Shown piece by piece: positions 4,442 through 32,473 of a stretch of 64,000 nt of DNA (position 1 is its first letter; every line of letters begins with the position of its first letter). The DNA comes from Candidatus Latescibacterota bacterium (GTDB taxonomy: Bacteria > Latescibacterota > UBA2968 > UBA8231). A program made the position numbers and the translations under genes. Below the pieces are notes generated by a model. That model was not told where the DNA came from. It saw only the letters and a list, made by a program, of their open reading frames with translations, and searched no databases. The DNA lies in contig OZ242214.1 of NCBI GenBank assembly GCA_965206595.1, positions 3,200,001 to 3,264,000 of the forward strand. The letters are read 5' to 3'.

Positions 4442-4634
4442 GCAAGACCGCAGCCGGAGGTCGAGCCGCCCCCTCATTCCTGCAGAAGACTCCCGGGTTG
4501 CCGAGGGCGGCTACCCCGGGACCGGTGCTCCTGCCCGGAGCGGCCGCCGGCCTCCCACAACCGCCCGCGGCAGGGTCGGCCCAGGCCCTCCCCCGGGGCC
4601 GGAACTCTGGTCCGCAACCTCCCGAACCGCAGCC

Positions 4635-5408: not shown

Positions 5409-5597
5409 GGCGCAAGCTCCGTGGTTGTCGCGCTTGTTGCGGATGTGCAGGTTTCGACGCCTTTGCCTCAGGGGATGGAAGACTTCCCCGGGGCGAAATC
5501 TTTTCCGGGGAACTTCGCTGATTCCCCTCAGAGGCCTGAGGGCCCGCAGGGCTTTCGGGCGGCAACAAACGCCCAAAGAAAACGGAGGTCAAGAGAG

Positions 5598-7181: not shown

Positions 7182-7271
7182 ATATGTCCGGCTGCAAGCT
7201 GAACCGGCCGGCTCCGCGGCGCCGACGCGCGCCCGGACAGCGGCCGAACACTTACCGAGAAAGGAATAGGG

Positions 7272-7787
7272 ATGCTAAGCGAAAAGATCCAGCAGGCCCT
7301 CAACGACCAGCTCAATTCCGAGTTCTTCTCCGCCTACACCTACCTGTCGCTGGCCGCCTATTTCGAGGACCTCGAGCTCAACGGTTTCGCCCACTGGATG
7401 GAGATCCAGTACCACGAAGAGCTGATGCACGCCGAGAAGATCTACGCCTTCGTCAACGACCGCGACGGCCGCGTGCGCCTGCAGGCCCTGGCGCCGCCGC
7501 AGATCGAGTGGGACTCGCCGCTCGACGCCTTCAAGTTCGCCCTCGAAAGCGAGCGCGCCCTGAGCGACAGGATCTACCAGGTAGTCGACTCCGCCCTCGC
7601 CGAGCGCGACCACGCCACCCACACCTTCATGCAATGGTTCGTCAACGAGCAGGTCGAGGAAGAAGCCATAGTCCGCCAGATCGTCAGCGACATGGAGCTG
7701 ATCATCGAAAGCCGCGACGGCATCTTCCTCATGGACCGGGACCTGGCGCAGAGGAATGCCCAGTCCCACAAGCAGGATGAGGACTGA
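7272..7787 (+). CDS. ftnA: Non-heme ferritin
   Basis: MLSEKIQQALNDQLNSEFFSAYTYL; EELMHA; DHATHTFMQWFVNEQVEEE ferroxidase ligands. Confidence 0.93.
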   Translation: MLSEKIQQALNDQLNSEFFSAYTYLSLAAYFEDLELNGFAHWMEIQYHEELMHAEKIYAFVNDRDGRVRLQALAPPQIEWDSPLDAFKFALESERALSDRIYQVVDSALAERDHATHTFMQWFVNEQVEEEAIVRQIVSDMELIIESRDGIFLMDRDLAQRNAQSHKQDED

Positions 7788-7862
7788 ATCGACGGAGGCG
7801 CTGCCGGAGGATCAGTGCCAGCGCGCGCGGTTTCCGCGTGAATCCGGCGATATCGCGCAGGG

Positions 7863-7932
7863 CTAGCCCGAGCGGTACTGCGCTAGCAACTCGTAGTCCG
7901 GTTCCATCCCCAGGCCGGGGCGTTCCGGCACG
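7863..7932 (-). pseudogene. Possible C-terminal remnant of an enolase-superfamily (mandelate racemase-like) gene
   Basis: VPERPGLGMEPDYELLAQYRSG* resembles the family's PxxPGLGxE C-terminus; GC-rich, abutting AT-richer DNA. Confidence 0.3.
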
Positions 7933-8119
7933 GCATCGTTTCCGTCCATGGCGTGAACCACAGAGATCAAAGCGCGGTAGGATAATCTCAGAAAGTGTCC
8001 GCCGAATTTTGCCCAAGCGATATGGCTAAATCGCTGCAAATCCAGTCTACGCCGTTTTTTTCCCCATTTTGGGAGATGGCTTAACCACTGATCAATGGAC
8101 GCTTTGTTAATGGGATGCA

Positions 8120-8930
8120 TCATTCGGCATAAACGAGGGAGGTTACGGGCCCCTCCCCTAGTTCATTACGCTGCAGGCTTTTGGAGGCGTCATAAAATTC
8201 CACTTGGTTTCTTTTTAAAAAACTAAACTCTGCCGATTCCGCCACATAGTCGTGCGAACCGGCAGAGGATAGCCACCCCTTGACATTCGCCTCGTACGCT
8301 AACAACCAGTGCTCGTCGTATAACTCGTCGGTTGTCATCTTCGCCGAGGGACCACTAGTAGACACATTTTTGGAAATCAGATTGAGGTCCCGCGCATGCA
8401 ACAATACAAGTGTGACAACGGAATCCTCCATTGCCATGGCTTTTTTTGGCAACAGCGTCTTCAATTGAGATCTGAAACTCGATAGCACACCACAGTGCCC
8501 ATGCGACTTCACTGCTGTGGCCTAGTGGTGCGTGTCGAAGGATAAGCTGATTCAACACCTCTTCGAGGAGGATACGGTTTATGGAATAACCTGCGGATTC
8601 GTAGTTGACCAAAGTCTTTACGATTCGCTGAACTGTTCCAGGTTCGTTGGTTGCCGACTGAAGAAGGAGACTCTCTGCAAGTTCCCAATTCTCTATTTGA
8701 ACGGTGACGGATCCTAATCTCGCGACAGCGTAGTTCAGAACTGGATCGATAGGAAATTCACACGAAAGCTCAAAGGCGCGGTCAAAATATGCTATCAGAT
8801 CTGAGTGCTGAGCACGTGCTTGGTCGCGGAAGATGAAGGTACGCAGCTCGGAAACCCACTTTGGTTCGATCCCAATTGGAAGCTCGGTTATCAGAGTTTT
8901 ATTAGGATTTAGCGCCAGTCCGAATTCCCC
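8120..8930 (-). pseudogene. C-terminal half of an Abi/UG (DRT-like) reverse transcriptase, truncated by IS5
   Basis: Manual translation from 8930 down: GEFGLALNPNKTLITELPIGIEPKWVSELRTF...YFDRAFEL...VLNYAV...GHSSEVAWALW...EHWLLAYEA...VEFYD. LxLNxxKT is the RT motif after YxDD. Frameshift at the T7 run 8441-8447. Confidence 0.75.
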
Positions 8931-9787
8931 GGAACCTATCTCAAAATTGAGATTGTTTAAGTAAAATCAAAATGGATGCAAGTTGGACGAAGCCAAGAAA
9001 ATTCTCCGGATACAATTCCCAGCGAGTGATCACTCGACGCTGCCATTGAAGCCAAGCAAAGAATCTCTCAACCATCCAAGGCCGCACATAACGCCGCAAT
9101 CGCCGTCCGTCCTGAGTCTTTTTCTTGGTCCGATTCTGGCGATGCGGGGCGATCATCTCGATCCCGTCTTTCTTAAGCTCTTCATCCAACGAATCGCTGT
9201 CGTACGCCTTGTCGCCGATCAAGTTGTCAGGTTGGTCTTCGATCAGGTAAAAGTCAAAGGTCAACTGAACCAGCGTCACTTCATGATGGTTCGCTGCATG
9301 CGTGCTCACCGACAAGGGAAGCCCATTGCCGTCCACGATCCCCATGACCCGCACCCCCTTACCTCGCCTGGTGTGGCCGATATCGGCACCTCCACCCTTG
9401 GCCGCCGAGAACAGGCCATCGATGAAAGCCTCCGATTCGTCCAGACCCCCCTTGCTCGTGAAGGGTCTGGGCCAGGTCCATGAGAACTTCGCGCACCACC
9501 CCTTGACGACACCCGTTTTGAAAACGGCGATGCACGGTTTTGTAGTTCGGATAGCACTGCGGCAACATAGGCCATTGAGCCCCGGTGTTTAGAATCCAAA
9601 GGACGGCTTCAAAAACATCACGCGTGCAAACCGGTTTGCGACCCGGATGGCTCTTGGGACGAAGTTCTTCAGGAAAGTGATGGCGGATTCGTTGCCATTG
9701 CATGTCGGTCAGATTGACCATACACCAATGGTACATCACTGTCATTTCGAAAACAAGTTTAAGTTTGCCTATTTTGAGATAGGTTCC
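8931..9787 (-). mobile_element. IS5-family element, copy 1 (transposase 8941-9721, +1 frameshift near 9446)
   Basis: 17-bp TIRs GGAACCTATCTCAAAAT / ATTTTGAGATAGGTTCC; LWILNTGAQW, GDKAYDSD, WMVERFFAWL; nearly identical to 33339-34194. Confidence 0.93.
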
Positions 9788-10000
9788 AGGCATAGTGCCC
9801 CTGTCGGTGTTGGCAGAAACCTCCGCCGCTATGCGTTTGGTGAGCCGGTCTTTCATTCCCATGACGATAATCTTTCCTGCGGTGCCCCGGCCCTTTCCGA
9901 AATATGCCTCATCTATTTCCGCCTCGGTGCAGTTGACCGGTTCAGGCTCTCCCCACGCTTCGCGGATACGATGGGATACGGACCATGATGTCCGCTGCTT
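9788..10000 (-). mobile_element. IS1595-family transposase internal fragment
   Basis: Manual translation: KQRTSWSVSHRIREAW...EAEIDEAYFGKGRGTAGKIIVMGMKDRLTKRIAAEV; cut by IS5 on one side and IS630 on the other. Confidence 0.75.
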
Positions 10001-10823
10001 TAGTGTCCCGTCCCAGGAATATCTTGTAAAAATGTGATCTTCTCATTAGGTTTCCCCTAATAGGGATACCGCAAGGAGGAACCTAATGGCACTGGGACGT
10101 CCCCTGAAGCCGCTCACCCTCAGTGACGAAGTTCGTGCCCAACTCGAATCCATGGCCCGTTCCCGTAGCCTGCCTCATGCGCATGTGCGGCGAGCCAAGA
10201 TCGTCTTGATGAGCGATGAGGGGCTCACCAATCAACAGATCGGTCAGCATCTTGGGCTGTCGGGCGTTTCGGTTGGCAAGGGGCGCCGTCGTTTCTGCGA
10301 ACAAGGCCTGATGGGGCTCTACGATGAGCTGCGCCCCGGGGGTCCGCGCTCGATAAGCGATGAGGAAGTCGCCGCGTTGATTCATAAGACGCTCGAGCAT
10401 CCACCGAAGGGGGCCACGCACTGGACGTGCCGTTCCCTCGCCGCCGAGGCCAACCTCTCCAAGTCCACCGTTCAACGAGTATGGAAAGCGTTGGGTCTGC
10501 AGCCGCATCGACAGAAGCACTTCAAGCTGTCCAACGACCCTTTTTTTTGTGGACAAAGTCAGAGACATCGTAGGCCTCTACCTGAACCCTCCGGACAAGG
10601 CCATGGTGTTATGCGTCGACGAGAAGAGCCAGATCCAGGCCCTGGAACGGACGCAGCCGATTCTGCCTTTGGGCCTGGGCTATGTGGAAGGCGTTACGCA
10701 CAGCTATATCCGGCACGGCACCACGACCTTGTTCGCGGCGCTCGAAATCGCATCGGGCAAGGTCCTGACCCAATGCAAACCCCGGCATCGGCACCAGGAA
10801 TTCCTGCAGTTCCTCAAATACAT
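10001..10823 (+). mobile_element. IS630-family element, truncated by ISL3 (transposase from 10086, frameshift at the T-run near 10541)
   Basis: Left end TAGTGTCCCGTC resembles the IS630 end at 59994; HTH plus [35 protein letters not shown]. Confidence 0.88.
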
Positions 10824-12269
10824 GGCTCCTCTGGAGAATCTGTGGGTGAGGAGGGGAGGCTGCGGCGATGGGAATAGAGGAGGCCAGGTAGCCCAGGCGC
10901 ATCATCCCCCGGTATGTTGGGACAGTCCACCAAGACGGAACCCAACTACCTGTGGAGGGAATGATGCGCCTGATCACGGTACTAAACCGGTGCACGACCT
11001 TCAAGCGGTTTGTGTTTGAGGGCAGTCATTTTGACCGGCACGGAAGGATAATGGTGAGGATAAGGCCACGGAAAAACTCCCGGGGCGCGTGCAGCGGCTG
11101 CGGTCACTTGGCCCCCACCTATGACACGGCCCCCGAGGCCCGGCTGTTCGAGTTTGTTCCCCTCTGGGGGTTTCCGGTCTTTCTGGTGTATCGCATGCGC
11201 CGGGTTGCCTGCAAAGCCTGCGGCCGGGTGGTCGTCGAGAAGGTCCCCTGGAGCACGGGCAAGCACCACCTGACCGACCTCTACCGCTGCTTCCTGGCCC
11301 AGGGGGCCAAAAAACTGTCGTGGATCGAGGTGGCGCGTTCCTTCCGGACCCGTTGGGACAAGGTCTACCACTCCGTCCAGTACGTCGTGGACTATGGGCT
11401 CGCTCATCGCTGCCTCGACCAGGTCACGGCCCTCGGCGTGGATGAAATCCAGTATCGTAAGGGGCCTCATTATCTGACGTTGCTGTACCAGATCGACCCC
11501 CACCGCCGCCGCCTGTTGTGGATGGGCGAGAAGCGGACGAAGAAGGCCTTGAACGACGGCTTTACCGAACGGGAGCAGGAGCACCGGCGCAAGCAGGAAG
11601 CCGGCGGCGAGCAGGAGCCGACCCGTTTCCTCGACCAGATTACCGTCATCTGCTCTGATATCTGGAAAGCCTACCTCGACGTTATCAGCAAGCGGCTCCC
11701 CACCGCGGTACCTATTCTCGACCGTTTTCACCTCATGCAGCACTTCAGCAAGGCCCTCGACAAAGTCCGTGCCGAAGAGGCCCGCAGACTCAAAGAACAG
11801 GGCCAGGATCCGGTCCTGAGCAAGAGCCGCTGGTGCTTCCTGAAGCGCAAGGAGAACCTCAGCGACTCCCCCCCAAGGCTTGAAGCTGTCGGAGCTATTG
11901 AAGATGAACCTGCGGACGGTCAGAGCCTACCTGCTCAAGGAGGACTTCCAGCGCTTCTGGGACTACACCTACTCCGCGTGGGCTGAGAAGTTCCTCCAGC
12001 GCGGGTGTTTCCGTACGATGAGAAGCAACATCGAACCGATGAAAGACATCGCCGGAATGCTGCGGCGTCACCAAGAGCTCATCCTCAATTGGTTCAGGGC
12101 CAGGAAGCAGTTCAACAACGGCATGGTCGAGGGCTTGAGCCTGAAATGGAATCTGACAGGGAGAAAAGCATTCGGATGCCGCACCTTCAAGGCACTCCAA
12201 ATCGCTTCATTCCATCAGCTCGGCGATTTACCCGAGCCACAATTCACCCACGAATTCTACTGACGAGCC
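10824..12269 (+). mobile_element. ISL3-family element (transposase 10961-12263, frameshift at the C-run near 11868)
   Basis: Imperfect TIRs GGCTCCTCTGGAGAAT / ATTCTACTGACGAGCC; CSGC..CKAC zinc finger, GVDE, DRFH, NGMVEG motifs; flanks do not form a duplication. Confidence 0.9.
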
Positions 12270-13403
12270 AAAAAGGAGAATCCCGTCAGAAACGATCTCC
12301 TCGCGGCCAAGAAGCCTTTTAAACGGGAGATCTCATTATCGAATTCGGAAGTTGTGCCACTCCTGGCTTTGTCCAAGTTCACGTCCGACCTGATCAACTC
12401 GTAAGTTGAGTCTATCTGAGCCCCTACGGCGCCGAACCCTTGGTCGATGACGATTCCGACCTTTTTCCAGAACGACTCGCGCCAAGTGTCATACTCCATT
12501 AACCTCTGAAATAGAAGGTGGTATCGAAAATGGGAATGCTGAAAGACAGTCTCAAGATCCGCACGGTATTCCCCGGACCAGTGATTCCCGAATGAAGCAT
12601 CGTGATCCCAGGGCATTACTTGCTCCAGGCGCCCACCCGGATGGAAATAGAGCAAGGTATTCTTCGTCACTGCGTCCATATTGGAGATGGCATATGTGAC
12701 TGCGTAGTATCGAAGGACACTCTCCACATTCACCATGGAAGGAATCTTCTCTTCAAAGTCCTCGTGGGTCAGATATAGGAGCTGATTGAACAGGCGCTGC
12801 AAATCGGTGTAGTTGGATTCATCCCCAGCCTTCTTGTTCCAGGACGAAAGGTAGTTATCGTACTCCAGCAACGGCGCCGTACTGCCTCCGTGATCCTCGG
12901 ATTTGTAGAGACTTCCGAGCTCATGCTCGTAACGTCTCAGGAAGTCTTTGTTCGTCTCCTCTACCTGGACAAAGACGCCCATAAAGTCGTCGTTGACGAT
13001 TAGGCTGACGTGTTTGGTATTCGGGGCCGGATGGCCAAGGAATTGAAAACAGCTTCATGGTCAGGACGTTGCGCATCAATGAAAGATCAGTGTATTCCGC
13101 ATTGAGATTGACCTCCCTTGCTCCGATGGGATTGGAGTAATCCTCAAACCAGATTTTCCAACTTTTCTTCGGGTACTTCCGGGCGGTGGCGCCGCGGAAT
13201 CGAACCTGGCACTCGCGAGATTGGCCGACGAAGGTGAATCGGGCTGGATAGCGGACGTCGCTGTGTGGTGCCTGATATAGAGAACTCAGGTCGTCGGGAT
13301 CGACGGTCAGGCGATATACAGGCAATTCGAGCCGATGATCTTGGGCCTGGAGGAAGGGTGCATGAATAACCACCAGGAAAAAAACGAGAACCGGCAACCT
13401 CAT
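12270..13403 (-). pseudogene. CotH kinase family protein; frameshift near 13045 and 3' end abutting ISL3
   Basis: Signal peptide; VRFRGATARKYPKKSWKI, LNAEYTDLSLMRN, (frame-corrected) LFQFLGHPAPNTKHVSLIVNDDFMGVF, NMD..KN, PWDHDASFG. Confidence 0.8.
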
Positions 13404-13570
13404 TTACAAAAAGCCTTCGCAGAGAATCCTAAGGGGGACCGCCCGCACCGCCCCTGCCCTCCCGGCGAAGGGCGCCATCCCCGTCCTCCAGAAGGCAGGT
13501 GATCGATCAAGGTCCTGAGTGATGGCCGTGCAGGGAATACACCGGCAACGGGCGGGCATCGGCAGAGGCC

Positions 13571-14341
13571 TCACACCACGATGTCGGTTCCACTGCCTGC
13601 TCCCTCGAGACAATTGTCGATCACGTACCGGTATTTCGAGTATCCGCGCTGGACAAGGGAGAAACGCTTGATGAGGTCCAGCGCCCAGAAAGGCACCAGG
13701 GATTCGGTCTTGATCTCCATGACGACGGGGGACTCCGCCCACTGAGCGGTGACCGCGTCGTCGTAGTAGCTCATCTCCTCATCATGGCTCGACAGGTCGT
13801 ACGAACCGCGCATCAGCCGGTAGCGCATAGCGCGGTCGAACGTAATGCGTCCGTAGGCGTCCACGTCGCTGACGAAGGGCTGCCGGTGGTAGCGGAGATG
13901 GAGCACGGGCTCGGTGCCGTACAGATGATGGACGTCGACGAAGGACCGCGGCAGGGCATCGTACGTCGGCGAGGTGCGTTCGCTCCTGGCGATTTCGAGC
14001 ACCCCGGGCCACTCCGTCATAGCGATTCGGTCGCGGACCTTCCAGACGGTGCGGTTGTGCCGGTACTTGACCTCGAGGGTGGCAGACTCGACGGCGCCGG
14101 TTCCGTAATAGCGGACCCTGGGTTTGAACCGCAGCAGCTCGCGCAGCCTGGTGTCGTGGTAGAAGCGCAACCCGGGAGTATCCATGTACACGCTGTTGAC
14201 CGTGTAGGCTCCCTGCTCCCTGGGGACGTTGGCGTCGAGCGAAAACAGCGGCTTGATGAAATCGCGAATTTCCGCGGCCTGCGGCTCGGTCACGGTGTAC
14301 TTCAACTCGTAGCGGTGGATCGCAGGCAGCTCAACTGCCAT
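13571..14341 (-). CDS. VTC (polyphosphate polymerase) domain protein
   Basis: RYELKY, YTVNSVYMDTP, RFKPRVRYY, LEVKYR, RITFD, VMEIK and GYSKY motifs of the VTC/CYTH tunnel fold. Confidence 0.9.
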   Translation of the reverse strand: MAVELPAIHRYELKYTVTEPQAAEIRDFIKPLFSLDANVPREQGAYTVNSVYMDTPGLRFYHDTRLRELLRFKPRVRYYGTGAVESATLEVKYRHNRTVWKVRDRIAMTEWPGVLEIARSERTSPTYDALPRSFVDVHHLYGTEPVLHLRYHRQPFVSDVDAYGRITFDRAMRYRLMRGSYDLSSHDEEMSYYDDAVTAQWAESPVVMEIKTESLVPFWALDLIKRFSLVQRGYSKYRYVIDNCLEGAGSGTDIVV

Positions 14342-15644
14342 CGTGCCCCACCTCTTTCTGCAGAACCCCCGGATCCTCTATGCCCAGCTCGTAGTACAGG
14401 AAATAGAGGGCGTGCGCCAGTTCGCGTTGGCTCTCGGCGATTGCGACCCGCGCATCCATGATCGTGCGCTCGAGCTCGAGGATTTCGTCAGCCGGCACGG
14501 TAGGGTAGTCCCGTGTCTCGGCGATCACCAGCGACGATGCCTGGATGACGGCCTCGCCCTCCTGGAGGGTCAGGTCGCGGGCGAGCAGTGTCTCCGTGTA
14601 GTCGGAGAGCGTTTCGCGGACCTCCTCGGCGATGCGCTCGCGAACGGAAAGGACCTCGAGCCCGCTTCCCGACACCGCAAGGAAAACGCCGGCCAGGTTG
14701 CCCGCATTGCGGTTGAAGAGGGGGAGCTCCAGGCCGAACCTCAGCTCATGCCAGTCACCTTCGGAACGCTCGAAGTGTCGGGAAACCTCCAGGAAAGACA
14801 ACTGCGGCAGCCGCCGCCAGCTCTCGCGGTTTCGCCTTTCGAGGGCGAGTTGTCGCTGCTCCTCGGCCAACCGAAGCTCCGGGCGGTTGGCGTAGGCGAG
14901 GCCAAGGAGTCGCTCTTCATCCAAGGCGACTTCGGGAAGCGGCTCAGAAAGCACCTGGATCTGCGTGGAGATACCCGTGAGTCGTCGCAACCTGCGCTCT
15001 TCCTCCCGCAGTGCGTGCAAGCTGCGAAGGTGACCCTGCCGCGCTTCGGCTACGGCCGTTTTTGCTTTGACGAAGTAGACGATCGATCTCCGACCGAGGT
15101 CCATCATGGTCTCGATCTGGGAGATCCGCAGGTTCTCATTCTCAACCCGCATGGCGGCGATGCGGGCCAGTTCGGCGTGCATGGCGATATCGGCGCAGGA
15201 TCGGCGCACTCGCGAAGCCAGCCAATGCCGCTCCCGTACGGCCTCGACCTTGCGCTCCCACAAGGCTACCTGCTTCCGCTGCCGTCGCGCTCCCGCCTCT
15301 CCGGCGGAAGGAGGACGCCAGCGGATCCCTATCTCGAGTTCGTCGAACCGGGCGGTACCGGCCCGGGAGGCCAGGTTGCGGACGCGCACTTCCGGATTGT
15401 CGATCCAGTCGAGCGAGCGAATCCGGTGGGTGCGAACCTCGGTCTCTGTTTCGAGCGCACGGAGCCGCGGGTTGTTGTCCAAACCCACCGCCACCGTTGC
15501 TTCAATCGTCAGGGTCACCCCGTCCTTGTGGGCGGCGTTGTGACCGCCCGGGGCTTCGCCCGGGAGATCGGCGGAGGCTGCCGTCGAAGCGGGGATCGCA
15601 ACGAAAGGGGCCAGCACCACGAGAAACCGGCCGCCTGCTCTCAT
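14331..15644 (-). CDS. TolC-family outer membrane efflux protein
   Basis: Signal peptide; LTIEATVAVGLDNNPRL, AYANRPEL, GLELPLFNRNAGN; ATGA overlap with the upstream HlyD gene. Confidence 0.85.
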   Translation of the reverse strand: MRAGGRFLVVLAPFVAIPASTAASADLPGEAPGGHNAAHKDGVTLTIEATVAVGLDNNPRLRALETETEVRTHRIRSLDWIDNPEVRVRNLASRAGTARFDELEIGIRWRPPSAGEAGARRQRKQVALWERKVEAVRERHWLASRVRRSCADIAMHAELARIAAMRVENENLRISQIETMMDLGRRSIVYFVKAKTAVAEARQGHLRSLHALREEERRLRRLTGISTQIQVLSEPLPEVALDEERLLGLAYANRPELRLAEEQRQLALERRNRESWRRLPQLSFLEVSRHFERSEGDWHELRFGLELPLFNRNAGNLAGVFLAVSGSGLEVLSVRERIAEEVRETLSDYTETLLARDLTLQEGEAVIQASSLVIAETRDYPTVPADEILELERTIMDARVAIAESQRELAHALYFLYYELGIEDPGVLQKEVGHDGS

Positions 15645-16732
15645 CGCCCCGGTCTCCCGATTTCCGGGCCGCTCTCTTCCGCAAGGGCGCCCCACGGTGC
15701 GGACGGGCGATCGGCAAGGCGTACGCGTACGGACTCGCCGGGCAGCAGGAGGTGGCCCGGCTCGAGGAGGACACGGGCTTTTCTCGCCCACAACATCTGC
15801 CCGCGCAGCCACAGTCTCTCAGGCATAGGTGAGTACCCCGGATGCACGAAGTCGATCCTCCCTCTGGCGTCGAACTCGCTCGACCGCCTCGACATCACTT
15901 CCACCTTCTGCCCGACATCGACCTGCAGGTCCTTCGTCTCCGGGACATACACTTCAACCGCGGAGGCGTGGGCGCTCTCCACGGAAACAATGGGCACGAA
16001 GGCATCGACCGTACTTCCTTGCAAGGCCAGGATCTCGGAGACCGATCCCGCACACGGCGACCTGACCGTCCGGTACTCGATGCGCTGATCGATCAGGGCG
16101 AGTGACTGCCGGACCTCGTGCAGGCGCTGCACCCGGTCCCCGAGAAGCGAAATCATGATGCTGTCGCCATAGGCACTCGAACCGCCGGCGCCAAGGTTGA
16201 GCACATCGGGCCGAATGAGGGCCGACTGTTCGGCTACCGACTGCTCCAGGGCATCGCGGCGGATGGTCATGCGGGTCAGATCGCGATCCTGTCCCAGGCC
16301 GGCTTTCTCCGCTGCCGCAAGGGCGTCGATTTCCCGGCCGAGGGCCTCGAGCTCGGCCTCCTCCGCCTTGACGGCGGCGTACTGCTCGGACACGCGCAGT
16401 CGCAAAAGGTCGTACTCGACGCTGTATCGACGCCGGTCTGCAGTTACTATCGACTCCAGGGCGGCCAGCTCTTCTTCACGTAGTCGTTTTTCCGCCAACA
16501 GATCCGAGGCGTCCAGGCGAGCCAGGACCTGTCCGGAAACGACGCTTTCCCCCACGGCGGTACTCACCTCCTGGATGGCACCTCCCTCGCGAGCGCCCAC
16601 CGATCGCACCGTCGATACCACCGTGCCGATCAGGTACGGGTCGGCACGCCACTCCCGATAGCCGTAGGCCGCGGCAAGCACGCCCGCCACCCACAGGGCA
16701 CGAAAAGAGTTCTTCCTCAGCCAGCGCTTCAT
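15641..16732 (-). CDS. HlyD-family membrane fusion protein
   Basis: N-terminal TM; lipoyl half-motifs GAIQEVSTAVGESVVSGQVLARLD and VRSPCAGSV; coiled coil; beta-barrel ending LLPGESVRVRL. Confidence 0.85.
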   Translation of the reverse strand: MKRWLRKNSFRALWVAGVLAAAYGYREWRADPYLIGTVVSTVRSVGAREGGAIQEVSTAVGESVVSGQVLARLDASDLLAEKRLREEELAALESIVTADRRRYSVEYDLLRLRVSEQYAAVKAEEAELEALGREIDALAAAEKAGLGQDRDLTRMTIRRDALEQSVAEQSALIRPDVLNLGAGGSSAYGDSIMISLLGDRVQRLHEVRQSLALIDQRIEYRTVRSPCAGSVSEILALQGSTVDAFVPIVSVESAHASAVEVYVPETKDLQVDVGQKVEVMSRRSSEFDARGRIDFVHPGYSPMPERLWLRGQMLWARKARVLLEPGHLLLPGESVRVRLADRPSAPWGALAEESGPEIGRPGR

Positions 16733-16735
16733 CAA

Positions 16736-17416
16736 CTACACCTCTACGGCAGAGGAGTGGTTCATGAAGGTCAGCCCGCGTATGCCTTCTATCCGTCCGA
16801 GAGCCTCGATCAGTCGGGTCGAGTCCGCTTCGTCGGCGAGTTTCACCTGGTAGGTGCAGTCGACGAGATTGCCTTGGGCGACATCGCGCATGGTGACCAG
16901 GCCGAACGTTCTCGGTACCTCTTGCAGTATCCGGGCAACCTGGGCGGCAAAGGTCGGCCCCGTCGGTATCTGGAACCGCACGAGTCCATCGAATTTCATC
17001 CGCGTGCCGAACAGGGACGCGTGCATGACTACCGCGATCGTACAGAACAGGGCGGTGGCGAAGGTGGCGGCGAGGTAGCTCTGAACGCCGCAGGCTACCC
17101 CGGCACCAAGAGCAGCGAACAGGAACACCAGATCGCGCGGATCGCGCAGGTTGGTGCGAAAACGAATGATGGCCAGCGACCCCACAATTCCGATGCCCCT
17201 GGCGACGTTGTCGCCGATCGCAATCATCAGCAGACAGGTGATGATGCTGCCGAGAACCATGGTCTGCATCAAACCGCGCGACCAGGACAGGCCCTGGAAA
17301 GTCCACTCGTACACCATTGCGATTAGGCTCGAAAGGCAAAAGGCGAATACGAGAGAGAGCAGGACCTGGTTCCAGTGGAGTTTGATCGTTCCGAAATCGA
17401 GCAACAGACTATCCAT
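16736..17416 (-). CDS. DUF4956 family membrane protein
   Basis: IGDNVARGIGIVGSLAIIRFRTNLRDPRDLVFLF..GVACG signature followed by a small soluble C-terminal domain. Confidence 0.9.
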   Translation of the reverse strand: MDSLLLDFGTIKLHWNQVLLSLVFAFCLSSLIAMVYEWTFQGLSWSRGLMQTMVLGSIITCLLMIAIGDNVARGIGIVGSLAIIRFRTNLRDPRDLVFLFAALGAGVACGVQSYLAATFATALFCTIAVVMHASLFGTRMKFDGLVRFQIPTGPTFAAQVARILQEVPRTFGLVTMRDVAQGNLVDCTYQVKLADEADSTRLIEALGRIEGIRGLTFMNHSSAVEV

Positions 17417-17482
17417 CAGACACTGACTCCTGGGCTTCTTTCAAGGTGTGACGGAGAGTGAAAGGGCGACTCCTGAGCCCTT

Positions 17483-17491
17483 AATATACCA
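17483..17491 (-). promoter_or_regulatory. Candidate extended -10 promoter for the DUF4956 operon
   Basis: TGgTATATT on the minus strand in an AT-rich patch about 70 bp upstream of the DUF4956 start. Confidence 0.35.
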
Positions 17492-17663
17492 TTGAATTTC
17501 GAAATCCTGGTGGACACGGGCACGGAAGGAAAGAATCGCCCTGCGTCGTCCGGGCCGGCCGGGCCAAGCAAGGCCCCGCAGACCATCGACGCGTTTTTCC
17601 AGCACTATCCCCCAGCGACTTCAGAAGGCCCGGTATCCGCCGGGCTGCCGCTTGCCGACCAAA

Positions 17664-20600
17664 TCACCGACTTCCGGCGACCTTCAACATTTTCCTGGTC
17701 GTGGAGAACCCGTTGATCCTGATGCGGCACAGGTAGACTCCCGATGCGACCTCATATCCGTCTGCGGATCGGCCGTCCCAGACCAGCGAGTGATCGGTTG
17801 TCTCCATGATCTCGTCATCGACAAGCGTTGCCACAGGGGCTCCCAACAGATTGAACACCTGAACGGACACGTTGGCAGTTCTGGGCAAGCTCAAGAACAC
17901 CGTGGTTTTGGTGGAAAAAGGATTCGGATAGTTGACGACCTTCGCGCCCGGATTCGATGCGGAGGGAGCACCCGGAGCATTCCACGCTCCCGGCGTCCCC
18001 CCGTTAGGTGAGGCGTACCAGTTTTCGGGCCGGGAGTTGTCGACCGTGGGCTCAACCAGGGCCAGGGTAAAGCCTGTTCCGTTTGGCTCAGTTGGCCAGG
18101 GAGGGCGCTCGTCATACGCAACCGAATCGACAACCCGCTCGAGGTCGGTCAATAGGGTAAGGTGGTCACCACGGCTGCTCAGTCCGAAGGGAAAGTTTCC
18201 GAAACAACCGTCCGTCTCCGGAAAGACCGTCAGAAAATCGGTGCTGTCACGGCAAATCACGACGTACCCGCCCGCTCCAAGAAGGACATCGGGGGGCAGA
18301 ATGAAGTCGGGCGAGTTCCCCGCATCGCGAAAGCGCCAGCCCCCGATCTCGAGGGGGGCCGAGCCAAAGTTGTGAAGCTCAGCCCAATCTCCGGAGTCCA
18401 GAGCCTCACTCGAATTGTAATTGATTTCGTTGATCACAACGGGCAGCTGCCCGGGTGAAACGGGGTCCTGCTCAGATGAAGTGAACCGGGCGGTAAGCTC
18501 GTAGTTCTCCTCGATGGAAATTCTGGCTTGGAAGGTGTCGGAAACCGGATCCGACCAACTGTCGAACTCGAACCCGGAAGCCGGAACCGCAACCACATCG
18601 ATGGGCACCCCGTTGAAGTAGAGACCGGATGAGCTTGTAACTCTTACGGGTACCGTGTTTACAAAAATGGTACCAGCTCCCTCGGGCTCGACTTCGAGGG
18701 AAAGCGTGGATCGGCCCCCCAGGGAAAATTGAGTCTGCAGGTGACTCCATACATAGCTTGCCCTCACCCGGGCGAAGGCCCGCATCACGTCGAGATTGGA
18801 ATCCCACTCCTCTATCGTAGCGAACGCCTTTCCATAGAACGGGGAAGGGAATCGTTCCCACCGCTGGGAATGCCGGGGTATTTCATCCGCAACAGGGTTC
18901 CTCATGCCGTCGATTACGGAATCGACGCGGGTCCATTCAAAAGTGGTGTTCAGATGGCCTGCGAACCGTTGAATGAAATCGTGCCTGATTTCATCGATCT
19001 CGAGAAGGTTTTGCATGAGGAAAGTAGCCCAGGGTGGATTCGGCCATCCACGACCGGGAGTGGTCGCCAAGGCAACCATATCGAGTTCGGGAGGGCTGGG
19101 GTTCAATGCCAGAGGCAAGTTGAATCCGTAGTCCAAATCGAAGAGTATCCATCGCCAGCGGCCGTTCGCACTGTGGGGACGCCAGAATTCCCAATTGTTA
19201 CCGGGCCAATCGGTATTCGCCACGTACATTTCCGCAATCTGGTAATTGAGAAATTCATCGAGATCCAGCCGGGCCCGTATCTCCTCAAGGGCGCCGACGT
19301 CCTGCAGATCACTGCTCTCGAGGTAGCTCAGAAATGACTGAAAATGTTCGGCGTCTCCTACCCTCACCTCTGAATCGTTGACGAGGTAATCGATTGCGTC
19401 CGATCCAAATCCATGGTTATCGGATATGTAGTCGACTGAAATGCGCTCGCGCATGTTGTGGATACCCCAGTACTGGCCATTGAGGTAAAGAACGACAGGC
19501 CTGTAGGCTTGGTAATCGATATCCATGCGATCCTTGACCAGGGCCTGCATGATCGCGTCGCGAAGGAGCGTGTAGGTCCAGTCATTGCCCGAGTTGCGCA
19601 GAATGAAACCCTTGTATCGGGTTATAGTCTTATCGGGGAAGAGAGGATAATAGATGGCCTCATTGCCGTACCTCCGGCGAGCGTGTATGGCGATCGACTT
19701 CTGCGGCTGGTTGCGAGACCATCCGCCGTGAATTTTCACGCCCACATCCTGGGAGAATTCCAGCCTGCCGCCGGCATCGTTAAATTCGATATGGGCAGGG
19801 CGTTCCCAGTCGCGCGTGAAGTTCGTGCGATCTCCCTTGATATAAATACCCACCTTTCCGCTCCAGAGATGTTCCGGATCGACAGCTAAGGAAACAGTCG
19901 GCAGGCTGACCTCCTCACCGATAAAGTAGGTGCTGGTTATCACGTCACTGGGGAGATGCCCTTCGGTGACCGCGAGTAATCGCAAGACTGTTGTGGTTTC
20001 CATGCGGACTCCGGAACCCTTGTAACGTCTTTTCCTCGTTGGGATGCTGCCATCGGTAGAGAAGAAGATGCTGGTGTTGGCATCCGGATGGCTCAAGGAA
20101 ACGGTGAGCGGACTGTCGTAATAGCCGCCCAAATGCGAGTAGGTGGGAGCCTGGGAATGGTGAAGCTTTCCCGGGGAAACGTTTCCCCTCCCCGGAGATG
20201 GCTCATCCACAAAGAACCAGGCTTCTCCGTTCGGTACTCGAGCGTAGGAAACGTCGGGGCGCAGGGGACCGAGGGTCACTGAATCGAGGAGTGTCGTGCC
20301 GTCCGAAGCAAACAATCCCAACTGCTCGCCGTTTGAAGAGAGTCTGAAATTCAAATGGAGCCCCTCCTGATCGTGGTCTCCGTCCGCCCAAAGCAGAATG
20401 AATCTACCGGCAGGGATGGTGGTGGCTTTCCGGTCATTTGTGGGAAATCGGAAGGCCCTTGGATTGGTCAGGTCATCGGTGATGAACATTCCACCAATGT
20501 TCGCGGCGCGGCCGCCGGCATTGTATATCTCTATCCAATCGTCGAATTGGCCGTACTGGTCGGCACAGCAGGACTGGTTGTTCGACATCAGTTCGTTTAT

Positions 20601-20675
20601 GAGCAACCCTTCGGCAAACAGTGAACGGGGTAGGCTGAAACAGCCGGCAAGAACGGCAAGAAGGACGATGCCCAT
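17664..20675 (-). CDS. Secreted multidomain CotH kinase (lamin-tail, FN3-associated, CotH, lamin-tail, FlgD/T9SS-like CTD)
   Basis: LLINELM..DWIEIYN; YFIGE; ILRNSGND; NTDWPGNN; WRWILFDLDYGF; VVINEINY; C-terminal NYPNPF...WDGRSADG..ASGVY. Confidence 0.9.
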   Translation of the reverse strand: MGIVLLAVLAGCFSLPRSLFAEGLLINELMSNNQSCCADQYGQFDDWIEIYNAGGRAANIGGMFITDDLTNPRAFRFPTNDRKATTIPAGRFILLWADGDHDQEGLHLNFRLSSNGEQLGLFASDGTTLLDSVTLGPLRPDVSYARVPNGEAWFFVDEPSPGRGNVSPGKLHHSQAPTYSHLGGYYDSPLTVSLSHPDANTSIFFSTDGSIPTRKRRYKGSGVRMETTTVLRLLAVTEGHLPSDVITSTYFIGEEVSLPTVSLAVDPEHLWSGKVGIYIKGDRTNFTRDWERPAHIEFNDAGGRLEFSQDVGVKIHGGWSRNQPQKSIAIHARRRYGNEAIYYPLFPDKTITRYKGFILRNSGNDWTYTLLRDAIMQALVKDRMDIDYQAYRPVVLYLNGQYWGIHNMRERISVDYISDNHGFGSDAIDYLVNDSEVRVGDAEHFQSFLSYLESSDLQDVGALEEIRARLDLDEFLNYQIAEMYVANTDWPGNNWEFWRPHSANGRWRWILFDLDYGFNLPLALNPSPPELDMVALATTPGRGWPNPPWATFLMQNLLEIDEIRHDFIQRFAGHLNTTFEWTRVDSVIDGMRNPVADEIPRHSQRWERFPSPFYGKAFATIEEWDSNLDVMRAFARVRASYVWSHLQTQFSLGGRSTLSLEVEPEGAGTIFVNTVPVRVTSSSGLYFNGVPIDVVAVPASGFEFDSWSDPVSDTFQARISIEENYELTARFTSSEQDPVSPGQLPVVINEINYNSSEALDSGDWAELHNFGSAPLEIGGWRFRDAGNSPDFILPPDVLLGAGGYVVICRDSTDFLTVFPETDGCFGNFPFGLSSRGDHLTLLTDLERVVDSVAYDERPPWPTEPNGTGFTLALVEPTVDNSRPENWYASPNGGTPGAWNAPGAPSASNPGAKVVNYPNPFSTKTTVFLSLPRTANVSVQVFNLLGAPVATLVDDEIMETTDHSLVWDGRSADGYEVASGVYLCRIRINGFSTTRKMLKVAGSR

Positions 20676-20918
20676 TCCGGGCCGGTTTGTGAGATCAGTT
20701 GGTATCAGTGTCGTAGCTCCTCAGGAGATTCTCGGAGGCGCACCGGGTACATGGGTGTACGGCCCCGAGTAGCTGCCAGGCATGGGCGGAAGTTGCCGGT
20801 TCCCGTCTGCAGCGGACCAAGGCCCACTATCTACCGTCCGTCTGCCCCAACCGGCAGCCCCGCAGCGGGAAATGCCGAAAGCCCCAGGAAGGAAACAAGG
20901 GCGGCCCGAAGCGCCTTC

Positions 20919-22283
20919 CTACTTCCCCCGGTCCCCCATGGCGTCGCGGATCTCGCGGATGCTGCCCTCGAGCCGGTCGAGGCGCTCGTTGGTCTCCTTC
21001 ACGTCCTTCTGGATTTTCGTCGCGATGGCGACCTGCTCCTCCAGCTCCTCGGCCTTCACCGAGCCCTCGTCCTTCACCAGCACGCTGGTCAGGGTGGCGG
21101 TGAAGACACCCACCAGGACCATGCCCGTAATCACCAGGAAGACCGTGAGGATTTTGCCGGAAGCGGTCTGGGGATTGTGGATGTCGGCGTAGCCGCCGGT
21201 GACCAGGGTGGTGAAGCTCCACCAGAGACTGGGCCAGAACCCCGAACCGGACTCGAGGCGCTCCAGGCCCATGAAGATGCAGGCGCCGAAAACCAGAGAC
21301 ATCAGGCCGTAAAGCAACGACCGCTTGAGGAGCCTCACGTCGAGGGTGGAGCTCAGGTGGTCCATGCCGCGCCAGAAGAACAGGCCGATGCGGAACAACC
21401 TCAGCGCCCTGAGAATGCGCACCGCCCGCAGCAGGCGCCCCAGGCGAAGGATGCCTATGTCGCCGGAGGCGGCGATGACCTGCACCGGCGGAAGGGGTAT
21501 GGAAGTTATGAAGTCTATCCAGTTGTTCTTCCAGTACCACTTCTTCGAATCGGCAAGCCTGTGCTCGAAGACGAAGTTGGCCATGAAAAGGCCGCAGCAT
21601 ATCACGTCGATGATCCAGAATATCCACAACGTGCTCACGGCGAAGTGGGGCAGCACTTCCACGACGGGATCGGTATAGTTCTCTCCGCTGTCGATGATCT
21701 TGACCTGCGCCAGCTTTCCCCCGACCACCTGCCCCGAAGCAAGGGCGTGCGAACCTTCCTCATCGGAAATGTGGAGGTTCACCCGCTCATACCCTTCTCC
21801 CCCGTTCAGGATGACGATCCCGCCTATCTTCCCGTCCTCCACTTCCGCCCTGGCAACGGCGCCGCCGCCGGTGGCCCCGACGCCGAGCAGGTCGACGACG
21901 AGTATGGTGATGAGGAAGAGGATGAGGATGAAAACCAGCAGGTCCTTGGCTCTCACGCTGCCGGCGCTGCCCAGAACCCTGGCCTGCTCGTCCATCAGGT
22001 GTTTCTTCTGGCGCGCCTGCTCGATGATCCGGGCCTTGTCCATCAACTTCTCTTTTTCCTCGTTCAGCCTCGAGATCCGCGATTCCGCCTTGTCGAGGCC
22101 CAGCTCGTAGTGGCCGTGCCTTTTGCTCAGGCTGACCGTCTCCACCTTTTCCGCCATGGCGTCGATCTCCCTCTCTTCGACGGCCAGCTGACGGTCGATG
22201 CGGTCGATCTCCTGCACTACCAGGTCCTTCATCCTGGTAATGCGTTCGAGGGAGCAGGATTCCAGTCGCTTTGAAAATGACAT
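20919..22283 (-). CDS. 6TM voltage-gated-type cation (K+-like) channel
   Basis: S4 LRLGRLLRAVRILRALRLFR; pore WWSFTTLVTGGYADIHNP; coiled-coil N- and C-termini. Confidence 0.88.
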   Translation of the reverse strand: MSFSKRLESCSLERITRMKDLVVQEIDRIDRQLAVEEREIDAMAEKVETVSLSKRHGHYELGLDKAESRISRLNEEKEKLMDKARIIEQARQKKHLMDEQARVLGSAGSVRAKDLLVFILILFLITILVVDLLGVGATGGGAVARAEVEDGKIGGIVILNGGEGYERVNLHISDEEGSHALASGQVVGGKLAQVKIIDSGENYTDPVVEVLPHFAVSTLWIFWIIDVICCGLFMANFVFEHRLADSKKWYWKNNWIDFITSIPLPPVQVIAASGDIGILRLGRLLRAVRILRALRLFRIGLFFWRGMDHLSSTLDVRLLKRSLLYGLMSLVFGACIFMGLERLESGSGFWPSLWWSFTTLVTGGYADIHNPQTASGKILTVFLVITGMVLVGVFTATLTSVLVKDEGSVKAEELEEQVAIATKIQKDVKETNERLDRLEGSIREIRDAMGDRGK

Positions 22284-22566
22284 CTCGATTTAAAAAACTC
22301 CGGGCTGAGGCTGTTCGGTAACCGGTACGATTCGACCACGTACAAAGTTAAGTAATGGCCCCCCCGGAGGGGTTTCTGTCAAGACGCTGAAGGCTCGCAC
22401 GAGCCGTCGCAGAAGCAGGTCGACGAGCCGGCTCAGGGTTTTGGAACCGAGCCGGCGTTGCGGGGATTCGCACGGATGAGAGCGGCCTGTCATCGCAAGA
22501 CCCGGGCAGGGCCGCCCATGCTCATTCTCCTTTCGGGGACCCGATTACTGCCTATAATGGACTCCC

Positions 22567-24501
22567 ATGACTGCCTCTCACTCCCCTTCCCGTTTCAGCT
22601 ACAGGGGCCTGTTCATCGGTGTGCTCCTGTGCGTGGGCGTCGGTCTGGTCGCCCCGTACTGGGCCGTCTTCACCTACAACGGGGTCGGCTTCGCCCCGGC
22701 CTCGCCGGGGGCCATCCTGTTCCTCATGGTCACCGTCCTGGCGAGCGCCGTCGTCGGCCTGATCAGCCGCCGGTTGTCGCTGCCCAGGGCCGACCTGGTG
22801 CTGATCTTCTGCATGCTGCTGGTGGCCATAACCGTGCCGACCTGGGGGACGATGTTCTTCCTGATCGGCACCATGGTCTATCCCTACTACTTCGCGACTT
22901 CCGAGAACCGCTTCGCCGACCTGCTGCACCCGCACATCCCGTCCTGGATCGTGCCGCAGGACGTGCAGGCGATCAAGGATTACTACGAGGGGCTGCCCAA
23001 GGGGGGCCGCATCCCCTGGGAGGCGTGGGTCGAGCCGATGGGGCACTGGCTGGCGCTGACCACGGTGATGGGGTTCATGCTGATCTGCATGAGCGCCATC
23101 CTGCACCGGCAGTGGTCGGTGCAGGATGGCCTCACCTATCCCATGATGCAGCTGCCGCAGCAGATGATCGACGACGGCGGGGGCATTGGCCGCCGCCTGG
23201 CGCCCTTCTTCAGAAGCAAGACGATGTGGCTGGGCTTCGCGATTCCGGCGATCACGTTGAGCCTGGGCGGGTTCAACCACTTCTGGCCCGAGGTGCCGGA
23301 GTTCAGGCAGGTCGGCGGCCTGCGCCTGTTCAACAACACCATACACATCGGGTTCTACTTCAAGCTCGCCTACATCGGCTTCTTCTACCTCGTCGACCTG
23401 CAGATCCTGTTCAGCATCTGGTTCTTCTACCTGCTGTGCAAACTCGAGGACGGGGTGTTCAAGACACTCGGTATCGCCAACACCGAGAAGCTGAGCGTGT
23501 ACGAGTATTCGCAGTCAGCGGACCTGACGCACCAGATGACCGGGGCGGTCATCGTTTTCGTGCTCTACGGAATGTGGATCGCACGCGGGCATATTCTGGC
23601 AGTGATCCGCAAGGCCTGGGATCCGTCAGGGGGGATGGACGACAGCGAGGAGCTGCTGAGGTACCGCACCGCGGTCGTCGGTTTCCTGGTGAGCCTGGTG
23701 TTCTGCGGCGTCTGGCTGTGGCGGTCGGGGGTGCCGGCGATCACCGTGCCGTTACTGCTGGTCGTCAGCCTGATCTTCTTCATTCTCGTGGCGCGGGTCG
23801 TAACCACCGCCGGGGTCGCCACGGCGCGCAGCCCCATCGTGCCGGCCTTCTTCATCATATCGGGGCTCGGGACCTCGATCCTCGGCGCCAAGGGTCTGGT
23901 GGCGCTGAATTTCACCTTCATCTGGCAGGGGGAATCGCAGCTGTCGGCGATGGTCGCCACCTCCAACGGGCTGAAGCTCGCCGAGAGGATCCCCGGACCG
24001 AAGGGTCGTCTGTTCTGGGGGCTGATGCTGGCCCTGGTGGTCACCTTCCTCGCCTCGGCCTGGATGACTCTGAAGCTCGGCTACACGTACGGCGCCATAA
24101 ACCTCAACCTCCTCAACTGGGTAGGGGCTCACGGGTGGCCTTCCCTCGGCGCCAAGATTGCGGACATGCCGGACGCCAACATGAGGGGGTGGATGTTTCG
24201 CGGAATCGGCGCGGCAGTGGAGGGATTCCTGATGTTCGCCCAGCACCGGTGGCACTGGTGGTCGCTGCATCCGCTGGGGTTCACCATCGGCGTCGGCTGG
24301 CTCACCAGCAAGCTATGGTTCCCGGCGCTGCTCGCATGGCTGATAAAGCTGACCATCCTCTTCTTCTGGGGCCCGCGGATGTTCCAGGCCATGAAGCCGT
24401 TCTTTCTCGGGCTGATCATGGGGGAAATAGCAGTCGGGGGCATCTGGGGAACGATCTTTCCGTTCACCAGCGAAACCGGCCGCTGGCTCACCTTCATCTG
24501 A
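22567..24501 (+). CDS. Polytopic membrane protein (DUF6785/DUF6784-like putative transporter)
   Basis: Many TM helices; YPYYFATSEN, IPWEAWVEP, RQW...LTYP, WWSLHPLGF, PFFLGLIMGE motifs. Confidence 0.7.
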   Translation: MTASHSPSRFSYRGLFIGVLLCVGVGLVAPYWAVFTYNGVGFAPASPGAILFLMVTVLASAVVGLISRRLSLPRADLVLIFCMLLVAITVPTWGTMFFLIGTMVYPYYFATSENRFADLLHPHIPSWIVPQDVQAIKDYYEGLPKGGRIPWEAWVEPMGHWLALTTVMGFMLICMSAILHRQWSVQDGLTYPMMQLPQQMIDDGGGIGRRLAPFFRSKTMWLGFAIPAITLSLGGFNHFWPEVPEFRQVGGLRLFNNTIHIGFYFKLAYIGFFYLVDLQILFSIWFFYLLCKLEDGVFKTLGIANTEKLSVYEYSQSADLTHQMTGAVIVFVLYGMWIARGHILAVIRKAWDPSGGMDDSEELLRYRTAVVGFLVSLVFCGVWLWRSGVPAITVPLLLVVSLIFFILVARVVTTAGVATARSPIVPAFFIISGLGTSILGAKGLVALNFTFIWQGESQLSAMVATSNGLKLAERIPGPKGRLFWGLMLALVVTFLASAWMTLKLGYTYGAINLNLLNWVGAHGWPSLGAKIADMPDANMRGWMFRGIGAAVEGFLMFAQHRWHWWSLHPLGFTIGVGWLTSKLWFPALLAWLIKLTILFFWGPRMFQAMKPFFLGLIMGEIAVGGIWGTIFPFTSETGRWLTFI

Positions 24502-32342: not shown

Positions 32343-32473
32343 GCGCTGTTTTGTGGGAAGCCAATATCCTACCATTCACGAACGGCACGGCGCAAACGCC
32401 TGACACGGCAATTCGCGCCGCGGCCTGCCGCCGCACCCCCCGTGAGATCCCCCTTTCGACACGGAGAAACCCG

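Follow-up and report, generated by a model that had tools for sequence, protein, structure and literature searches.

A conserved DUF4956-HlyD-TolC-VTC gene unit in a Latescibacterota bacterium as a candidate system for polyphosphate export

Described relatives and layout of the locus

We analyzed a 64,000-nucleotide stretch of the genome of a Candidatus Latescibacterota bacterium (contig OZ242214.1, positions 3,200,001 to 3,264,000 of the forward strand; hereafter, the window). Its minus strand carries four adjoining genes for a DUF4956 membrane protein, a HlyD-type periplasmic adaptor, a TolC-type outer-membrane factor, and a VTC-domain tunnel enzyme. Together they make up a genuine four-gene module, intact in this genome and widely conserved. 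We give about even chances to the reading that the four genes form one envelope-spanning machine for polymerase-coupled export of polyphosphate across both membranes; the role of DUF4956 as the channel, all physical contacts between the parts, and the identity of the exported molecule are what we infer in that reading. The genome is a single contig of 7.05 Mb, and the records of its nearest named relatives bear the labels Candidatus Latescibacterota or Gemmatimonadaceae.

Polyphosphate synthesis in bacteria is generally assigned to intracellular PPK enzymes, and we know of no route by which it reaches the bacterial surface or the medium. In synthase-dependent exopolysaccharide secretion, such as that of alginate (Alg8/Alg44/AlgE) and cellulose (BcsABC), an inner-membrane synthase is combined with a periplasmic adaptor-like protein and an outer channel, and polymerization is thought to drive export. 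In contrast to these systems, the module would handle an inorganic polymer, its putative synthase is a soluble tunnel enzyme, and its duct is of TolC type instead of a beta-barrel porin with a tetratricopeptide repeat scaffold.

A review (PMC10657179) treats polymerases of the VTC type as eukaryotic. The eukaryotic VTC complex (yeast Vtc4/Vtc3/Vtc1; 3g3q, 7ytj, 8i6v) has the catalytic tunnel domain in common with the module, and its described coupling of polymer synthesis to membrane passage (PMC9911596, PMC4641920) is the logic that we propose here. Unlike its eukaryotic counterpart, the bacterial VTC protein is free-standing (256 amino acids) and has neither an SPX domain nor a membrane segment. 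Its putative membrane partner is a five-helix DUF4956 protein of predicted MgtC-like build, whereas the eukaryotic complex uses three-helix Vtc1-type subunits, and its product would leave through HlyD-TolC rather than enter the vacuole. As in EmrAB-TolC, HlyBD-TolC, and MacAB-TolC, the genes for an anchored adaptor, with its lipoyl, barrel, and hairpin portions, and for a TolC-type factor are neighbors. Unlike in these tripartite efflux and type I secretion systems, the module encodes no transporter of the ATP-binding cassette (ABC), resistance-nodulation-division (RND), or major facilitator superfamily (MFS) type, and no conserved one was found in the 72 loci described below.

In Gram-positive bacteria, genes for CotH, a polyphosphate polymerase, and DUF4956 occur together as accessory genes of pel operons, with CotH predicted to be secreted (10.1101/768473, 10.1101/2024.04.20.589940). 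VTC directly abuts DUF4956 in these pel-linked loci, as it does in the three Bacillota loci described below, HlyD and TolC are lacking, and export is not proposed in the sections of the two reports on which we draw. The window differs from such operons in that Pfam detects no pel genes in 12257-22283. A Vtc4-like fold and an MgtC-like protein are noted in the Streptococcus intermedius study (10.1101/2024.04.20.589940), and a Clostridium perfringens locus with VTC, a 226-amino-acid membrane protein, and CotH appears in another report (PMC2879425). A description of the HlyD-TolC-linked form of VTC/DUF4956 was not found in the literature searched.

The minus-strand genes of the locus are listed in transcription order, followed by the adjoining insertion sequence (IS):

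20919-22283, minus strand: ion-channel gene, 454 amino acids (Pfam Ion_trans).
17664-20675, minus strand: CotH-big, exported CotH kinase-like protein, 1003 amino acids (Pfam, NCBIfam).
17417-17663, minus strand: gap of 247 nucleotides between CotH-big and DUF4956.
16736-17416, minus strand: DUF4956 membrane protein, 226 amino acids (Pfam DUF4956, 44.1 bits, cut-off 30.6).
15641-16735, minus strand: HlyD-type periplasmic adaptor, 364 amino acids (Pfam HlyD_D23, 45.7 bits; HlyD_3, 36.2 bits).
14331-15644, minus strand: TolC-type outer-membrane factor, 437 amino acids (Pfam OEP in two stretches, 51.1 bits).
13571-14341, minus strand: VTC-domain tunnel enzyme, 256 amino acids (Pfam VTC, PF09359, 98.7 bits, cut-off 23).
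12921-13403 and 12257-12982, minus strand: second (downstream) CotH gene, broken into two frames (Pfam CotH in both).
10823-12269, strand not given: ISL3-family insertion sequence (Pfam DDE_Tnp_ISL3).

The Pfam assignments of the module genes are all well above the curated cut-offs. A preliminary description of this DNA had stated that the four module genes abut or overlap, and our reading of the junctions, all on the minus strand, agrees. The DUF4956 stop codon TAG (16738-16736) directly abuts the HlyD start (TTG at 16735, ATG at 16732), the HlyD gene ends, and the TolC gene probably starts, within a shared ATGA at 15644-15641, and the TolC stop is located 11 nucleotides within the VTC gene, which starts with ATG at 14341. 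This packing fits coupled translation. The longest TolC open reading frame (ORF), which reaches to 15812, is probably over-extended; a signal-peptide-like start is located at 15644. The 247-nucleotide gap at 17417-17663 is a possible start of the four-gene transcription unit. No sigma-70-like promoter sites were found in 12000-23000, where this consensus says little for the host phylum, and terminator-like sites numbered 10 in the same range against 8.1 expected.

The operon had also been described as free of ABC and RND pump genes, and Pfam indeed shows no ABC, RND, or MFS gene in 12257-22283. The claim that secreted, co-oriented CotH genes flank the operon on both sides holds in part: both genes are present and have signal-peptide-like N-termini (judged by eye), but the downstream one is broken. 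Position 12270, which had been taken as the border of the system, is instead an IS boundary (12269/12270).

Conservation of the four-gene unit

The first lineage of loci was collected by a scan of one genome per species, using an alignment of close DUF4956 homologues and strict patterns, and represents one subfamily at least 50% identical. The genes in these loci were counted with profiles built iteratively from the window proteins. In total, 72 loci were recovered, distributed over 68 assemblies with the labels Latescibacterota/Gemmatimonadota, Myxococcota, KSB1, Calditrichota, Neomarinimicrobiota, Ignavibacteria, Cytophagia, Spirochaetales, and Deferribacteres. HlyD is located directly 3' of DUF4956 in all 72. 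The complete four-gene set is present in 60 loci, 59 of which have the uninterrupted order DUF4956-HlyD-TolC-VTC, while a CotH gene is inserted in the remaining one (L041). Contig ends cut 11 of the 12 loci without the full set, and the twelfth (L084) lacks TolC. TolC is present in 66/72 loci, and five of the six without it are cut by contig ends.

A second DUF4956 lineage, ~40% identical to the first, was recovered from metagenome contigs with a single-protein query (40 loci). Here the gene order is VTC-DUF4956-HlyD-TolC. HlyD follows DUF4956 in all 27 loci with room for it, the other 13 ending within DUF4956 or at most 219 nucleotides past it. VTC precedes DUF4956 in 35/40 loci. Of the five exceptions, four are truncated, and L125 has 2.2 kb of upstream sequence without VTC. 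The expectation that HlyD and TolC are conserved together with DUF4956 and VTC was thus borne out, with HlyD following DUF4956 in genome loci (72/72) and in metagenome loci with room for it (27/27) alike. Because the four families stay together in two gene orders, we favor a functional link over frozen synteny.

The distance matrices of the four module proteins correlate with r of 0.81-0.90 (58 loci), which suggests that they are inherited as a unit. Among the four, DUF4956 is conserved best, with a mean pairwise identity of 63.9% in the same loci, and is followed by VTC (51.0%), HlyD (40.3%), and TolC (37.2%).

The single-membraned sample consisted of three Bacillota loci (L092, L093, and L094, from Paenibacillus, Acetoanaerobium, and an Enterococcus plasmid), with ORFs called directly from the records, and of published cases. 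In all three loci, VTC is directly followed by DUF4956 and there is no duct. The predicted contrast, a duct in double-membraned and none in single-membraned bacteria, therefore holds in this small sample. In a high-GC Nonomuraea locus (L091), the VTC and DUF4956 frames escaped the ORF picking, and only CotH, histidine phosphatase, and PPDK-like genes were scored. Among 14 named control genomes, VTC and DUF4956 both matched in Bacteroides thetaiotaomicron, Corynebacterium glutamicum, and Methanosarcina acetivorans only; CotH matched in the same three and in Bacillus subtilis. Genes for an OmpR-type response regulator and for a histidine kinase adjoin VTC-DUF4956 in L092, L093, and L094, and may hint at a controlling signal.

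Predicted properties of the encoded proteins

The VTC protein consists of the tunnel domain only (Pfam profile positions 2-228 of 235) and has neither a signal peptide nor a membrane segment. A single-sequence search of the PDB gave nothing useful. A search with a profile of 60 module VTC proteins succeeded, and matched the catalytic domain of yeast Vtc4 (3g3q) over its full length (E 2.7e-9). Residues K14, R75, R77, K92, K101, and R103 align to Vtc4 K200, R264, R266, K281, K294, and R296, and residues Y151, R153, R165, E209, K211, and K236 to Vtc4 Y359, R361, R373, E426, K428, and K458. These twelve tunnel residues, which we take to be important in Vtc4 also at the positions other than Lys-458, are invariant in 60/60 module VTC sequences and in the three Bacillota sequences. 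Lys-458 of Vtc4 is named as catalytic (PMC4641920).

An AlphaFold 2 (AF2) model of the VTC protein, with a predicted local distance difference test score (pLDDT) of 88.8, was compared with known structures by Foldseek. Ranks 1-13 were taken by Vtc4, Vtc3, and Vtc2 (best Vtc4 match E 2.6e-14, TM score 0.71). Other tunnel enzymes, hydrolytic ones among them, began at E 7.4e-8, with TM scores of at most 0.51. As modelled, the closed-tunnel fold is clearly nearer to Vtc4 than to hydrolytic tunnel enzymes. Strand 1 reads R10-x-E12-x-K14, where R10 matches Vtc4 R196 and the invariant E12 faces Vtc4 T198. In hydrolytic tunnel enzymes, a metal-binding Glu occupies the E12 position, and an acidic patch provides a second metal site (PMC4641920). 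Judged by its sequence, the VTC protein appears polyphosphate-polymerase-like, and polymerase activity is the function that we infer for it. VTC is found in this genome only in two copies of the module. PPK1 is present in the same genome, and cytoplasmic polyphosphate therefore has its own enzyme.

The DUF4956 family is large, with 4882 cluster representatives at E of at most 0.001. The AF2 model of the window's protein (pLDDT 87) has helices at residues 15-39, 47-67, 71-85, 93-110, and 114-133, followed by a C-terminal ACT-like domain. Residues 136-225 match the C-terminal domains of MgtC proteins (2lqj, 7qa5; Z 8.8-9.3) and many ACT domains (Z up to 11.7). The matches listed all cover residues 135-226, and the lack of a PDB match for the membrane part is no evidence for a new fold. 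The Pfam MgtC profile (PF02308) scored 19.5 bits, below its cut-off of 31.4. According to the model, the protein is MgtC-like in build, with a helical membrane domain and an ACT-like soluble domain. An invariant arginine-rich loop (residues 85-94) contains R85, R87, R91, and R94, of which R85 and R87 are invariant also among 94 diverse family members. From the positive-inside rule together with the model, we predict that this loop lies on the cytoplasmic side. Another DUF4956-like gene, of 332 amino acids, is located in a separate cluster, L096 (G000:C1:3924000-3943000, ~3826-12098), together with TolC-like OEP, SBP_bac_3-like, phytase-like beta-propeller, and Omp85-like genes; neither VTC nor HlyD was detected in this cluster. 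Genome G117 has two genes of 332-335 amino acids that resemble this second gene.

The window's HlyD is of the short form; its N-terminal tail is basic, and it has a single hydrophobic anchor segment. Its matches to the NCBIfam RND_mfp, EmrA, and HlyD subfamilies were all far below the cut-offs. Two sizes occur among the 67 complete HlyD proteins of the loci: 23 have fewer than 450 amino acids, as in the window, and 42 have at least 600. The long form carries a C-terminal DUF6929 domain with a weak likeness to SMP-30-type beta-propellers (loci L030-L090). Orthologues of the window's HlyD were found in 6/41 relatives and in 8/151 genomes of a phylum sample, two sets that overlap. They occupy 12 places in nine genomes of the phylum. 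DUF4956 adjoins them at 11 of these, and VTC follows at a distance of 2.3-3.4 kb; at the remaining place, an IS cuts the copy.

Pump genes were sought among the 364 neighboring ORFs of at least 120 amino acids that belong to no module family in the 72 loci. The largest family among these ORFs is present in just 11 loci. A filter for polytopic or ABC-like proteins, based on hydropathy and the ABC motif, kept 21 of the 364, and Pfam assigned AcrB, MFS, ABC ATPase, and MacB types among them, in one locus each (4/72 loci). No conserved pump gene was found near the module in the 72 loci by this crude pre-filter and greedy ORF picking. In the window, a gene for an ABC exporter half-transporter (28819-32436) is located outside the operon, ~8 kb upstream of CotH-big and on the same strand. 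It recurs beside the module only within the genus, and the genome has several similar ABC genes.

CotH-big contains a CotH domain (Pfam PF08757, 157.5 bits, residues 313-642), two LTD stretches, and CHB_HEX_C. It ends in a sorting domain of the type IX secretion system (NCBIfam TIGR04183, Por_Secre_tail, 37.1 bits, cut-off 23). The genome has SprA and 92 matches to this sorting domain at E of at most 0.001, CotH-big included. By these sequence features, CotH-big is assigned as a type IX cargo. A single-sequence search of the PDB with the CotH domain gave nothing useful; a profile of 30 CotH domains, with that of the window first, succeeded and matched Bacillus cereus CotH (5jd9, chain residues 47-324, E 5.7e-49). 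The CotH consensus keeps N-Y and W-D-x-D aligned to 5jd9, and the corresponding stretches of CotH-big read NNW and FDLD; these may include the catalytic residues. CotH genes are found at most 8 kb from the module in 48/72 loci. They directly follow VTC in 28 of the 52 loci with room and directly precede DUF4956 in 18 of 61.

Possible export route, rival explanations, and genome surroundings

In the export reading, polyphosphate synthesis would take place at the cytoplasmic membrane, on its inner face, where the VTC tunnel enzyme would polymerize phosphate from adenosine triphosphate (ATP) as yeast Vtc4 does. A DUF4956 oligomer, with its arginine-rich loop on the cytoplasmic side, would take the chain from VTC and pass it across the inner membrane. 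The membrane-anchored HlyD and the TolC channel would then carry the chain over the periplasm and the outer membrane, and outside the cell the exported polymer would meet the type IX-exported CotH kinase-like proteins. That polyphosphate could serve as the phosphoryl donor for surface CotH kinases is speculative and rests on the gene neighborhood and on CotH export. The full version of this idea, a pump-free trans-envelope machine with a tunnel polymerase on an MgtC-like channel, a TolC duct, and polyphosphate that serves CotH as a substrate or, independently of ATP, as a phosphoryl donor, appears distinctly unlikely to us.

The preliminary description had likewise read the operon as a polyphosphate exporter. 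This reading gains from the conservation of HlyD/TolC with DUF4956/VTC, from the lack of a conserved pump, and from the retained Vtc4 tunnel residues, but loses at E12, which differs from Vtc4. Because the invariant E12 stands where Vtc4 has Thr-198, VTC may instead act as a hydrolase or carry out other chemistry. Several further observations weigh against export of polyphosphate by one machine. DUF4956 is unrelated to the yeast Vtc1-type channel subunits. A VTC-DUF4956 fusion was not found among the longer proteins searched, which is weak evidence. The module is patchy in the phylum (8/151 sampled genomes), and the crude hydropathy and motif filter with greedy ORF picking could have missed a pump. 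In the sections consulted of the S. intermedius study, MgtC in Salmonella is presented as a regulator and not a transporter, deletions of the Gram-positive counterparts in S. intermedius gave no clear phenotype, and the authors suggest a cytoplasmic polymer (10.1101/2024.04.20.589940).

The duct could instead export another cargo, such as a small anion, a metal-phosphate complex, or a peptide, with VTC acting as a triphosphate- or ATP-cleaving energizer or as a regulator of DUF4956. The invariant E12 at the metal-site Glu position of hydrolytic tunnel enzymes (PMC4641920), the ligand-binding ACT-like fold predicted for the C-terminal domain of DUF4956, and the reported ties of MgtC-family proteins to ATP and phosphate regulation (10.1101/2024.04.20.589940) would all suit such a system. 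Yet the full basic Vtc4 tunnel set is kept, including the residue aligned to Lys-458, and the VTC model resembles Vtc4 clearly more than it does the hydrolases. It also counts against this explanation that we know of no tunnel enzyme that powers a transporter. On balance, we regard another cargo as unlikely. Still less probable, in our view, is that polyphosphate is moved only to the periplasm or to a surface-bound layer, with HlyD-TolC as a scaffold or vent. The periplasmic beta-propeller-like DUF6929 domain of 42/67 complete HlyD proteins hints at periplasmic handling, and the single-membraned loci manage without a duct; against this, TolC is retained apart from a few mostly contig-cut loci, and the CotH partners carry signals for export to the outer surface. 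This places the second explanation among the very unlikely ones.

Co-regulation without a common machine would mean that HlyD-TolC serve a pump encoded elsewhere, while VTC-DUF4956 make intracellular polyphosphate. The ABC exporter gene on the same strand, 8 kb away, and the several similar ABC genes in the genome could provide such a pump, and the authors of the S. intermedius study favor a cytoplasmic polymer in the part consulted (10.1101/2024.04.20.589940). In contrast, HlyD always directly follows DUF4956, in both gene orders, and the window's HlyD subfamily was not seen apart from DUF4956; the ABC gene is conserved only within the genus, and PPK1 already covers cytoplasmic synthesis. The preliminary description had named the pairing of HlyD with a separately encoded pump as an observation that would speak against an exporter. 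We found no support for such a pairing, as 11/12 HlyD orthologues are beside DUF4956 and no conserved pump was found nearby. A separate pump retains a low probability.

Polyphosphate export by the four-gene unit, if true, would have several consequences. A conserved bacterial unit that joins a Vtc4-like enzyme to an export duct is a concrete candidate for polyphosphate export. The DUF4956 family would gain its first proposed job, and the presence of exported CotH kinases beside module genes would be offered a reason. If CotH did use polyphosphate as the donor, bacteria would have a means of phosphorylating targets outside the cell. Soils and sediments are the home of uncultured phyla with the module, and there export would also matter for phosphorus cycling, for the formation of minerals, and for the matrices of biofilms.

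The genome is rich in insertion sequences, three of which stand in a row at 8931-12269: an IS4/5-type element (8931-9787, ~25 copies with 92-99% identity), a second element (10001-10823), and the ISL3 element (10823-12269). The GC content of this region is 51-65%, compared with 66-70% in the flanks. Six further full-length copies of the ISL3 element (99.6-100% identity) and partial copies occur in the genome. A second, partial module copy (VTC-TolC-HlyD, genome C1:78913-82061) is 99.97% identical to that of the window and lacks DUF4956; it ends 6 nucleotides past the VTC stop, and an ISL3 copy cuts the 5' end of its HlyD gene. The window's copy of the module is the intact one.

The downstream CotH gene is disrupted in two ways. 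Its 5' frame (12921-13403) has a signal-peptide-like start, and the second frame extends from 12982 as far as the IS junction (12270). Compared with an intact orthologue from the same genus, it has one extra T (+1 frameshift) in a T-run at ~13046-13049; its orthologues are uninterrupted ORFs (525+ and 874 amino acids). In addition, the ISL3 copy cuts the gene after ~380 codons. The lost 3' part, which encodes LTD and type IX sorting domains, is located 2.8 Mb away (genome 408751-410252) beside another ISL3 copy, which suggests an IS-mediated rearrangement. The letters at the frameshift are the same in contigs of run X1 over 12888-13594, although X1 may be the source sample and is thus not independent. 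Runs X4, X5, and X8 gave no cover over 12322-13104. One contig each from X4 and X5 joins 12124 to 13272 and skips 1147 bases, with a short side of only 30 letters. The IS/CotH junction may differ in other strains.

The ion-channel gene upstream of CotH-big was considered as a member of the system and rejected, since its synteny with CotH-big is limited to two genomes of the same genus (G001 and G002; 2/72 loci). Further upstream, a gene for a DUF6785+DUF6784 protein (22567-24501, 644 amino acids) is located on the opposite strand and has paralogues at genome positions 2174654 (81.6% identity) and 6922293 (73.2% identity). Genes for Cthe_2159-type carbohydrate-binding proteins adjoin the module in Myxococcota (L081:5750-7768, a 4-locus family) and the VTC-DUF4956 pair in Paenibacillus (L092:7476-9374). 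PPDK_N genes are found near the module in a 4-locus family (L066:13042-16158) and near CotH in Nonomuraea (L091:9673-10962).

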